From the NCBI GenBank assembly GCA_964016885.1, contig OZ024742.1, positions 223,076,001 to 223,140,000 on the forward strand: a stretch of 64,000 nucleotides of DNA, written 5' to 3'. Origin of the DNA: Eledone cirrhosa. Taxonomy: Eukaryota. Made by a program: the position numbers and the translations under genes. The notes beneath the pieces were generated by a model. It saw only the letters and a list, made by a program, of their open reading frames with translations, searched no databases and was not told where the DNA came from. Within the stretch, counting starts at the first letter, position 1, and each line of letters begins with the position of its first letter. Of the stretch, positions 2,245 to 59,289 are shown one piece after another.

Positions 2245-2370
2245 AACTCAATGAGTACTCAATACACGTGAAAAGAGTGTAGTAAGATTTATTTTCTGAA
2301 CAAAAAGGTGGCACTGACTTCGAAGTTTCGGTGTTGATGTCTCTATTGGCAGAGTTTCGAGACCTTCATA
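2245..2370 (-). mobile_element. Penelope pLTR-like fragment with 3' half of a hammerhead
   Basis: The - strand reads GAAACTTCGAAGTC (palindromic stem III plus GUC), then CACTC..GAGTA. Related copies at about 5505-5585 and 6910-7030. Confidence 0.55.
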
Positions 2371-4280
2371 TATATCTATATTGGGGATGGGAAGACTAGA
2401 CACCACAGTAGAACTCAATACATGTATAGACGTATGACACACATTCTTTGCATCTAAACATGTTTGGGTTGTTATTTTATAAGTTTGAGCTAAGTTTTGT
2501 TTCTATATTTAATTTATGGCTATTATATTTCTGTTCATATTTGCCGAAATTTCGTTTAATTATCAAGAACTAATGAATGAGGCAGCAGTGTTATTAATTA
2601 ACATGTAGTGCAACCACACGTATTTTCATTTTCTCCCCAACCATTAACATACATCTATATCAACGAAGAGTTAACTAGAAATAAACTGTTTTCTTCTTTC
2701 TCAGCTGCAACATTTAATTACCAATTTAGATTTAGCAATATAATAGTAGTAATAATAATATTGTTATATTTATATTAAAATATAAATAGTTATTGTTTAA
2801 TATTACAGTATGAGTTCAACGAATTTTATTACGAATTTAAGTTTTAAAAAAAAATGTTCTTTTGTTATTTATGTAACTTCTGTTGCATTATATATCCTCC
2901 CACACAAATGTGTGAATGGATGGATATATTTGCTGCATTTTATTATCCCATGTGACATAAACAATGTGTGTTTGTTGTTTGCATGTAGTTTTATGAATAA
3001 TGACTATGAATAGGCAAACCTACAATGAATTTCTTTTTGCCAAGCACGTCTATTGTCTACGTAGTATTTTGGGTTTGAAATGGCTGGCCATACATTGCTA
3101 TGTTATATATATTGTAACTAACTAATGGGTTACATACACGTAGACCTACATTCGTTGCTATTTCTCATATCCCTCTCTCTCCCGCTTCGAGGAATTTCAC
3201 TATTTGACAGTTGATTATGGGGCGGTGATAGTGCTATTGCTGTTCTTACTGATAGAAAGGGTTGGTGTTAGGCTAAAACGAAGTTGGCTAAACGTTGTGA
3301 CCGTATTTCTAATGAAATAAATACACTCTATTTCAGTTAATTAACTTTTAACACCCTGTATTGATTTAGCAAAAGAAAAAAAAAAGAATATGTAAAAAAT
3401 AGGCTCTGTTAATTTAAATATTTATAGTATCTTTATTGGTGGACAGATCGTTGTGAAAATTTGCAGTATTAGAGTTAAGGTTTTAATTTTTTATATGATG
3501 CAGTCATAGTGCTGTTTTGTATTTTTCAAGAATGCCTTGTTAATATGATTTTATGATGTAGGACATTAAGAGTTAATGAAGAATTTTGAAGGATTTACTA
3601 AAATCATTAGTTATTTCATTTTACTAACATAGTAACTTAACATATGGTTTTCTAGGAATCTTTAAAAATGAGTGGTTTTGTTTCATAGACCCCAAACCGG
3701 TTATTTATTCTTGTTATCCAAACCAACATGTGTGTATGTATAATATATATATAGTTTTCAGAGCTCAAGTTGTAGACATATGTTTATATTTATTTCCATT
3801 ACAGTTCTCTCTCCCCGCCCTCTCTCTCTCAGCTTGGAATAATGAAGCGATGCAGATTTTTAGTTTGTTAGTCGTGCTTTTTTTATTTAGGTATGCTCAT
3901 TCATATCCAAACCACCCAACCTTGTTAGTAATGTATTATTGTTGTTTCATTATCGATTTATCGATGTAACCGTAAGTCTTCTTCCGTGTTGTAGTAGAAT
4001 GGATTTAATATATACCTGTCGAATGTTTAAAAAACAACAACAAACATGATGAGCTTTTCATAACGGGTACTATACTAGCTGTAATATAGTAATTATAATC
4101 ACATATCTATCATATCTCACATTTCTTTTTTGAGAAATAGTGAATGTTATCGTTTACGGTTATTGTTGATATATCGACCTTTTACTTGACTGGTACTTTA
4201 TTTTATCGACCCTCTCATCTGGATGAATAACAATAATAATAACAACAGTAAAGCTGTAATTACCATTATATTAACTCAAA

Positions 4281-4470
4281 GGGCGGTAGATTAGCAGTAT
4301 CGGCAGAGTGTCGGGCAAAATGCTTTGCGGTATTTAGTTAAGACTCTTACGTTCTGAGATCAAATCTCGCCGGGGGTCAACTTTGCCTTTTAGCAGTTTT
4401 GGGGCCGGCATAATCGAATTTCTCCCCCCCCCCCCCAGATTGCTGGCTTTGTGCCAAAGTTAGAAACAAG
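4281..4470 (+). mobile_element. tRNA-derived SINE, older long form
   Basis: GGCGG head, box-B-like GAGATCAAATC, CAACTTTGCCTTT core, GTGCCAAAGTTAGAAAC tail. Confidence 0.8.
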
Positions 4471-57943: not shown

Positions 57944-58814
57944 GCTTCCCCTTGAAATAGGGCTATCAAAATGTTTATTTATTAAACACACCGTATATAA
58001 GAAGTTTGCACGCACGCACGCGTAAAATCCCAACCACGACACCAAGCTGTTTTGGCTTCTGTGTTCAGCAAACCTTTTCAAGAGTGTAGTAATATTTGTA
58101 GGGTGTGTAAAAATAGGTCACTAGTCTTGGTTGTGTTTTGGTCAAATTTACCATTGTAGTAAATTGGGAGAAAGTGGGGGGGGGGGGAGCAGAGAATTGT
58201 AAATATTTGGACAAGCAAGGGGTCAGGTGAAGTAGTTTGGGTGGGGGTAAGAGTGGAGTAGGAGAAAGTGTATAATGGTCATAGAGATAGGGTGTGAAGG
58301 GGCTGTAGGGAAAGACTATGTATAGACAGGGCTTAGAGGTTGAAGGAGTATTTTTAAGAAGAGAATCAAATTAAAAATAAAATGTGGGTTATATAGAAGT
58401 AAAAGAACAAATGGTTAAGTAAATTAGTAAATAGGATAAAATAAGATAGAATAAGATCAAGTAAAATATAAGGGTTTAAAAATAGGTAAAGTGGATAATA
58501 TAGGTTGGTAAACCAGTGGTAAGGTGTATATGTATTATACAGCACGCACATGCACACACACACAAACAAGTATACGGGAGTTTAGAAGTACATAAAAATG
58601 CATGAATAAATTAAATAACTATTATTTTAATGAAACGAATGGGTTGAGGTAAAATTTAGAGAGTAGATAAATGAGTAGGTTGGTAGATGAGTGAGTAAAG
58701 TATGCAAATTCATACATTCACACATACATACCTCTGTGCACATATGCACCCCTTCCCCCCCCCCCCCCCCCCACATATATGCACATTCACATGCCTGTGT
58801 GTACACATATATAC

Positions 58815-59157
58815 ATCATCATCATCATCATCATCATTTTACGTCCACTTTTCCCTGCTTGCAAGGGAGGGACGGGAACTGATTCTGGCTTGATTTCTAC
58901 AGCTGGATGCCCTTCCTAACACCAACCTCATTTACAGTCAGTGCTGGGTGCTTTTTTGCCGTGGCGCCTCCATGACCACTTTGCAGTGGAATGATAGGGA
59001 CCCCAGTCCTATCATCTCATTTCTACAGCTGAGTAAACTGGAGCAATGTGAAATAAAGTGTCTTGCTCAAGGAAACAACACATCACCCGGTCTGAGAATT
59101 GAACTCACAACCTTTCGATTGCAAGGCCAATGCTCTAACCACTAAGCCATGTGCCTC
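58815..59157 (-). mobile_element. Full-length tRNA-head/RTE-tail SINE (inverted twin of 15356-15685)
   Basis: Reverse complement aligns end to end with 15356-15685. Confidence 0.92.
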
Positions 59158-59289
59158 TCTCTCTCTCTCACTCTCTCACTCTCTCTCTCTCTCTCTCTAT
59201 ATATATATATCTGATAGGGTGTGGTAAAATACCAGGTGGACCATAACCCACCAGAGTACTCGATACTTGGATTAGTAGAGTGGGTTATA

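Follow-up and report, generated by a model that had tools for sequence, protein, structure and literature searches.

The stretch of DNA analyzed here (hereafter the window) comprises 64,000 nucleotides (nt) of contig OZ024742.1 from the Eledone cirrhosa assembly GCA_964016885.1 (positions 223,076,001 to 223,140,000, forward strand) and contains nine copies of a short hairpin motif, eight of which follow a whole or partial hammerhead ribozyme. An initial annotation had listed these copies under the pattern YACTC...GAGTR, and all nine strings (9/9) were found in place and on the strands assigned to them. Measured from the presumed cleavage triplet, the motif lies 26-64 nt downstream in eight of the nine cases, in good agreement with the 27-65 nt given initially; as had also been noted, no ribozyme accompanies the copy at 51637-51679, where we found no hammerhead within 110 nt. 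A TATATA or ATATAT run follows 36-126 nt downstream in seven of the nine copies; the copy at 5515 continues into TATATGTG, and that at 6915 has no downstream repeat. Since the tails of the copies at 2253, 5515, and 6915 are 70-75% identical among themselves, we assigned these to one family, which gives seven families (F1-F7) in all; other pairs in the window share 38-62% tail identity. Long palindromes are located directly before five of the copies (the inverted arms of Table 1), and their outer arm halts 3-11 nt short of the motif.

The refined element is a bulged hairpin of the form RCTC-stem-loop-TN-GAGY-RCY, in which a fixed basal stem (RCTC/GAGY) is followed by a 2-nt bulge on the 3' side that starts with U, a covarying upper stem, and a free loop. 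We examined its pairing in 25 cluster representatives from the organism's own genome, a set that includes chance matches and in which the nearest RCTC was used without any optimization. The first three positions above the bulge were paired in 72% of the cases vs 53±4% after strand permutation (0/10000), shifted registers gave 23-45%, and the tails of the same representatives were 45.7% identical compared to 45.5% for shuffled sequences. In an unselected sample of the genome (68 stretches of 10 kb, 680 kb in total, two of which flank the window), pairing amounted to 87% in 45 matches with a downstream microsatellite and to 33% in 20 others. Among 63 distinct hairpins from metagenomic relatives described below, 36 have C-G and 24 have T-A as the first pair above the bulge, and 87% of the positions are paired vs 59±3% in permuted sets (0/10000). 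The basal pair is G-C in 59/63 of these hairpins and mostly A-T in the window copies. Their wobble pairs (12 G-U vs 3 A-C) favor the sense strand. Since MAFFT left hairpins with variable loops out of register, pair counts were taken from anchored scripts. These data bear out the initial proposals that the loops differ while the stem is kept and that the copies share a cis-element; mere residual homology of an alignable family is refuted by flanks that do not align while pairing persists. The motif is thus a conserved cis-element, beyond residual homology.

How far the motif exceeds background depends on the pattern. In the window, the loose form YACTC-N8-35-GAGTR has 8 matches, compared to 4.35±2.5 in 20 shuffles (maximum 11), and is therefore not enriched there; in the 680-kb sample it occurs 60 times vs 40±6. 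The refined form RCTC-N7-32-TN-GAGY-RCY stands out, with 5 vs 0.9±0.9 matches in the window and 53 vs 11.9±2.3 in the sample. Since this refined pattern is post hoc, tuned on the same data, and its matches share families and are not independent, it is the positional and cross-species tests that carry weight. TATATA is found 35-74 nt downstream of 38/49 scorable refined-pattern matches vs 8.6% of random positions. Two window sites that match the loose pattern (12563 and 49864) were excluded, as no TA run follows close downstream.

To trace the carriers, we searched the 3.0-Gb genome with each family and obtained 17 to 4872 first-look candidates. Longer copies reach the ends of GIY-YIG open reading frames (ORFs) for F2, F3, F4, F5, and a sister subfamily of F6 (locus L416) that is 85% identical to the window copy. 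A single ORF encodes a reverse transcriptase (RT) followed by a C-terminal GIY-YIG domain in F2 (712 amino acids [aa]), F6 (719 aa), and F3 (715 aa, in a copy with a broken N-terminus); the F4 and F5 ORFs are in pieces. The Pfam match to GIY-YIG is weak (E 0.04). DKG is changed to DKT in F2, F3, F4, and F6 (the F5 piece does not cover this region), the CxCX5C linker is present in all five traced families, and CxxC..E and CxH are found in F2, F3, F4, and F6, and by eye in F5. CCHH is absent, the GIY and YIG halves being separated by a stretch with no more than one Cys, and the N-terminal position of the RWK motif reads RWR in F2, F4, and F6 and RWI in F3 (by eye). The DKT, CxCX5C, CxxC..E, and CxH motifs are those of the Hydra clade of Penelope-like elements (PLEs), as described by Craig et al. 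(2021; PMC8557442; here and below, statements on published work refer to the available portions of the sources). Judged by their ORF motifs, the five traced families belong to this one clade; with proteins 31-49% identical to one another, they are not the otherwise unrelated families of the initial annotation. Insertion into (TA)n targets holds for the hairpin-bearing families. F1 and F7 are old (copies 70-88% identical among themselves), and a genome search for an F1 read-through pattern gave 0 matches. A HINE/Helentron or short interspersed element (SINE) origin was dropped once PLE ORFs turned up upstream, and another PLE family of the window (positions 30288-31709), which we take to be Neptune-like from its motifs, was rejected as an autonomous partner: it has neither the motif nor a BLASTP match to the Hydra proteins. 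Viral contigs contained no relative. The 3' untranslated region (UTR) of F2 (locus L339) holds a long TA/TG microsatellite that several copies share and that thus belongs to the element itself.

Where copies are tandem or full-length, the sequence past the hammerhead runs into the ATG of the next unit, and the 'tail' is therefore 5' leader. The order in full-length elements is hammerhead, hairpin 1, hairpin 2, ATG, the hairpin being usually present twice per leader, 55-71 nt apart. Inserted copies end at (TA)n with a short inverted arm that stops just before hairpin 1 and a long arm that stops just before hairpin 2 and thus carries hairpin 1 and the tail. In F3, the second hairpin begins about 6 nt beyond the usual insertion end. 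We predicted in advance a second hairpin past the F6 tail end, and the corresponding search yielded 433 genome matches vs 0 for a reversed control; among the matches listed (100 of 433), nearly all stem from one read-through, which has G-C as its basal pair and lies in tandem units of 3.53-3.55 kb. F6 ends followed by TA fall at -5 or 72-78 in 153/162 cases (hairpin 2 starts at 78), and at the same two positions in 27/27 cases from unselected DNA. The F3 ends fall at -7..+2 or 83-89 in 94/100 cases (hairpin 2 at 90), and ends are equally bimodal in F2 (78/82) and F4 (58/60); in this mapping, most loci were chosen by tail searches, and BLAST ends overshoot by a few nt. F6 copies start mostly 56-70 nt before hairpin 1, where Inr (initiator)- and TATA-like boxes are separated by about 30 nt. 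The initial annotation had overlooked that a second hairpin exists, that the motif belongs to the 5' leader, and that insertion ends line up with it, and had also missed the 3'-side bulge and the paired upper stem.

The same architecture recurs outside this genome. The F2 protein matches 541 database proteins at E<=1e-30, one of them named from a bryozoan. With an alignment of 63 of these proteins and two of our own, we fetched 77 loci from metagenomes and 17 from genome collections, which presumably represent animal DNA present in marine samples; 38 of these 94 loci hold an ORF start with a leader of at least 100 nt. The exact pattern is present in 29 of the 38 leaders, twice in 21, and in antisense orientation in none (0/38), whereas the ORFs contain 2 sense matches in 154 kb. 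Clustering of the 30 motif-bearing loci at 80% identity leaves 29 groups, and their hairpins show the spacing of 55-71 nt given above. In 27/29 leaders, 16-46 nt separate the end of the last hairpin from the start codon. Fourteen loci possess both a leader and a 3' copy; five are uninformative (four end at the contig edge, one reads through to it), and in all nine informative ones (9/9; L419 by eye) the 3' end halts 2-12 nt before a hairpin. Among the published Hydra consensi (PMC8557442, File S7), the motif can be seen by eye in Hydra-2_Amil and Hydra-2_Ajap, and twice before the ATG in Hydra-1_Ajap. Hydra-type PLE ORFs also occur in 17 contigs of prokaryotic genome bins (L494-L510), which are probably animal host contamination.

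The relationship to the ribozyme is looser than initially described. An intact core (CTGANGA) stands upstream on the same strand of two of the eight hammerhead-associated copies (8365 and 18397), so that a position 3' of a ribozyme holds for these, and the other six are preceded only by a hammerhead 3' half (GAAAC...triplet). Whole ribozymes occur in longer copies of the families at 18535 (F4) and 20601 (F5), and long copies of F2, F3, F4, and F5 contain intact predicted ribozymes. The sister subfamily of the copy at 59254 (F6) has a hammerhead with a variant core, which is one base short and often has T in place of C at its first position. Searching the genome for an intact canonical F6 core gave 52 heterogeneous, mostly junction-made matches and was abandoned, as the real core is the variant. 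The long loop II of this variant (L416 leader; L386-L415) contains the TATA- and Inr-like boxes, and the predicted transcript would therefore start within the ribozyme. Some F6 stubs (L356-L385) are joined to the 5' hammerhead half of another family, which suggests template jumps between PLE RNAs at the ribozyme. Taking the window and the unselected sample together, a hairpin is found within 80 nt of 9/88 intact hammerheads, and none of the two largest families (34 and 12 copies among the 88) has one; some Hydra copies lack the hairpin because short arms stop before it. In the Neptune-like family, which combines a hammerhead with a TA target, the hairpin is present in 0/36 copies. The hairpin is not a general hammerhead companion, and the notion that the motif accompanies hammerheads as such has to be given up. 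The commonest intact hammerhead family in unselected DNA (34/88; e.g., L355:457) is without the hairpin, and an intact-looking hammerhead at window position 26708 (+) represents a hairpin-less family with 18 copies in the fetched loci; a search for the parent elements of four hammerhead families without the hairpin found none. Rfam at gathering score reported no hammerhead or other family in the window and 7 loci.

Since copies end a few bases before either hairpin, we propose that the nine sites represent a conserved bulged hairpin of Hydra-clade PLE 5' leaders that likely acts on the RNA to position the start of reverse transcription, a reading to which we assign a probability of roughly 0.68. 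The RT-GIY-YIG protein, possibly as a dimer, would bind the hairpin and cut (TA)n DNA, and cDNA synthesis would be primed at an AU-rich spot 2-12 nt 5' of the bound hairpin. If one target strand is primed at each hairpin, the product would be a head-to-head palindrome in which only one side carries a tail, and the two start sites would thereby make the PLE 'tail'. Most window copies may be stubs because priming in the leader would run off the 5' end of the RNA after 60-150 nt, and the hammerhead would be upstream of the hairpin only because both lie in the pseudo-LTR (long terminal repeat). More tentatively, the two hairpins might form a doubled RNA signal in which each hairpin serves one protomer of a dimeric RT-endonuclease and primes one of the strands of the cleaved target.

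Several observations weigh against positioning of the RT by the hairpins. Most important is the sharpness of ends in F2 and F4 in the absence of a canonical hairpin 2, which runs counter to a strict form of the model: 30/36 F4 long arms end at +66 although read-through copies have no canonical second hairpin, and the single F2 read-through copy has only a shortened variant stem in its place. The F5 hairpin has a stem mismatch and a 126-nt tail, no ORF was found upstream of F1 and F7 in 30 and 17 loci, respectively, and 9/38 metagenome leaders are without the exact pattern. By eye, no clear copy is seen in Hydra-1_Amil or Hydra-1_Obim, and the one in Hydra-1_Crog is weak (PMC8557442, File S7). 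The wobble bias is not seen in our own-genome representatives (6 G-U vs 8 A-C, chance matches included). In the Poseidon element studied in vitro, initiation takes place inside an AC-rich stem-loop and needs no homology (PMC11167929), a different geometry. Since AT-rich sequence precedes the hairpins and insertion is into (TA)n, microhomology alone could help to choose the end.

The initial annotation had offered recognition by the RT or by the endonuclease; the former fits best, and the latter is retained as the main rival. In that case, the GIY-YIG endonuclease would recognize the hairpin as single-stranded or extruded DNA, and the ends would be set by cutting of a longer cDNA intermediate instead of by the RT start. 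This would fit the end positions equally well, and it is in line with the attribution of the tail to endonuclease-mediated resolution by Craig et al. (PMC8557442) and with the requirement of the Drosophila virilis (D. virilis) tail for endonuclease recognition (as cited in PMC11167929). We nevertheless consider it unlikely: the wobble pairs (12 vs 3) favor the sense strand, not the cDNA, and in vitro mapping of Poseidon ties tail ends to RT start sites (PMC11167929). Rather unlikely, too, are signals for ribonucleoprotein assembly or translation, with the ends arising through AU-rich microhomology to neighboring (TA)n or from a ruler that extends from hairpin 1 alone. The proximity of the last hairpin to the start codon in 27/29 leaders, the sharp F4 and F2 long-arm ends, and the location of long-arm ends 43-56 nt past hairpin 1 in four families would suit such schemes, but both ends lie 2-12 nt before a hairpin across leaders that cannot be aligned, and other AT-rich spots of the tail seldom serve as ends.

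A double-stranded DNA promoter element of the pseudo-LTR, as the initial annotation had also suggested, appears very improbable; although the hairpin falls within the region of the Penelope internal promoter (PMC8557442), the spacer between the half-sites ranges from 6 to 24 nt, the upper stem covaries, and the TATA- and Inr-like boxes of F6 lie 65-95 nt upstream. We give still less credence to a tertiary partner of the hammerhead, another of the initial suggestions. Hairpin 1 does begin within a confined distance of the ribozyme (46-74 nt after GAAA in 24 metagenome 3' ends); however, 79/88 intact hammerheads and all 36 Neptune-like copies (0/36) are without a hairpin, the hairpin is doubled and kept in a family with a variant ribozyme core, and its loops are not conserved. 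That the carriers form one clade and that the loose pattern is unenriched in the window could be taken to indicate residual homology or chance, whose probability we regard as negligible given that the flanks are at random identity while motif and pairing persist; it is also contradicted by the outcome of the F6 prediction (433 vs 0).

Table 1. Hairpins, arms, and ribozyme parts of Penelope-like families in the 64-kb window
Feature	Position	Strand	Remarks
Hairpin 1 of old family F1, no ORF traced	2253..2279	-	
F1 hammerhead 3' half (stem III and triplet)	2316..2329	-	F1 tail stops at TA run near 2195
Hairpin 1, F1 copy	5515..5540	-	decayed hammerhead 3' half at 5567-5578
Hairpin 1, F1 copy, one stem mismatch	6915..6941	-	hammerhead 3' half at 6983-6996
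F2 head-to-head inverted arms	8233..8353	.	short arm halts 11 nt before hairpin
F2 intact type I hammerhead	8294..8344	+	core 8300; predicted cut after 8338; mirror copy on - at 8286
F2 hairpin 1 (8365-8387) and tail to TA run	8365..8429	+	98% to leader of Hydra ORF in locus L339
F3 inverted arms, intact hammerhead in each	18105..18391	.	cores 18306 + and 18190 -
F3 hairpin 1 (18397-18425) and tail	18397..18481	+	87% to 3' end of Hydra element in locus L151
F4 tail and hairpin 1 (18535-18558, 1-nt bulge)	18499..18558	-	98% to locus L342; TA run common with F3
F4 inverted arms	18565..18669	.	hammerhead 3' half 18601-18612, -
F6 short arm	18697..18758	+	ends ~5 nt before expected hairpin 1 start; 89% to L416 leader
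F5 imperfect hairpin 1 (20601-20632) and 126-nt tail	20475..20632	-	tail contains motif mini-copy 20529-20539
F5 inverted arms	20636..20852	.	hammerhead 3' half 20697-20708, -; 96% to locus L344
Control without hairpin: 3' end of young Neptune-like PLE	30288..31709	-	GIY-YIG ORF end, hammerhead core 30527, TA target
Hairpin (51637-51679) and tail of old family F7	51567..51679	-	no hammerhead within 110 nt; no ORF traced
F6 tail and hairpin 1 (59254-59282)	59211..59282	-	85% to leader of 3.54-kb Hydra element in locus L416
F6 inverted arms	59290..59410	.	hammerhead 3' half 59309-59331, -

PLE families F3, F4, and F6 are stacked in one TA-repeat cluster of the window (18105-18760), where earlier insertions keep seeding targets for later ones. 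The Neptune-like PLE, present in the window and at L031 1958-5614 (-), has a 1218-aa ORF with an Asn-rich insert; it is young (98% protein identity among the best 150 matches), and its insertions end at TA-like spots around the ORF start. Other features of the window include two 3' fragments of a long interspersed element (LINE) that are 88% identical (16793-17869, +, and 38630-39581, -) and in which an RT is followed by a PHD-finger match (Pfam E 5e-6), a Caspase-domain fragment at 46946-47248 (+; Pfam Peptidase_C14, E 1e-6) that is possibly a pseudogene or exon, and a 96%-identical repeat (15358-15685, +, and 58831-59157, -) with a tRNA-like head just below the Rfam threshold, likely a tRNA-derived SINE. 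A general repeat search of the window was swamped by microsatellites.

The 3' stem-loops of LINEs, the hepadnaviral epsilon element, and the telomerase template boundary element are small, often bulged RNA hairpins that are bound by an RT and fix where copying starts or stops. The hairpin described here differs from these in being doubled, in lying 3' of the putative start site, and in its location near the 5' end of the RNA. Among PLEs, the closest biochemical precedent is Poseidon_Ac (Frangieh et al., 2024; PMC11167929), in which a pair of internal RT start sites was mapped in vitro to the boundaries of the tail. Cutting and extension involve both strands of the target, and a dimeric protein is predicted; the reaction requires RNA located 3' of the start sites but works without hammerhead cleavage. 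Poseidon_Ac has two start sites past the hammerhead, as we propose for the elements studied here, and shares with these a tail at one end (see also PMC3846280) and AT-rich targets. Its stem-loop, however, is AC-rich, lies inside the ORF, and was tested in one element with a tail of 30-40 bp, whereas in the Hydra elements a separate hairpin of the 5' UTR, found across the clade, stands next to each of the two ends, and tails measure 55-90 nt.

The carrier elements themselves are ordinary members of a known clade. As in the account of Craig et al. (PMC8557442), they possess one RT-GIY-YIG ORF of about 710-720 aa with DKT, CxCX5C, CxxC, and CxH but no CCHH; their pseudo-LTR contains a hammerhead, they insert into (TA)n, and partial tandems as well as inverted 5' copies occur. 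Hydra elements are generally smaller than 3 kb in that account, whereas the F6 units measure 3.54 kb and have the variant hammerhead core; the available text describes no leader or tail hairpin, although the motif is visible in some of its consensi. Non-LTR retrozymes (bioRxiv 10.64898/2026.07.22.740005) likewise consist of short type I hammerhead units that do not code for protein and descend from PLE pseudo-LTRs. These form tandem arrays, in contrast to the dispersed head-to-head stubs of protein-coding families found here; the window contains no retrozyme-type array with a complete hammerhead per unit, its copies being inverted stubs. We found no description of the hairpin in the available portions of the PLE literature, including PMC11167929, PMC8557442, PMC3846280, PMC4209133, and bioRxiv 10.64898/2026.07.22.740005 (subscription papers, Repbase notes, and some supplements lay outside the scope of this survey). 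It is a real and apparently undescribed cis-element in a known retrotransposon clade.

It is not yet settled how PLEs select a template and how their tails and inverted ends arise; one PLE has been run in vitro so far, and the motif bound by its protein is undefined. A covarying hairpin beside both insertion ends across a clade is a likely signal and provides exact mutations to test. It also permits RNA recognition in PLEs to be compared with that of the sister enzyme telomerase and can be used as a marker for annotating Hydra elements. If the doubled-signal design is true, it would account at once for tails on one side, palindromes arranged head to head, and the many ribozyme stubs; a hairpin of 25 nt would then be all that an RNA needs to become a template for this RT, a relative of telomerase.

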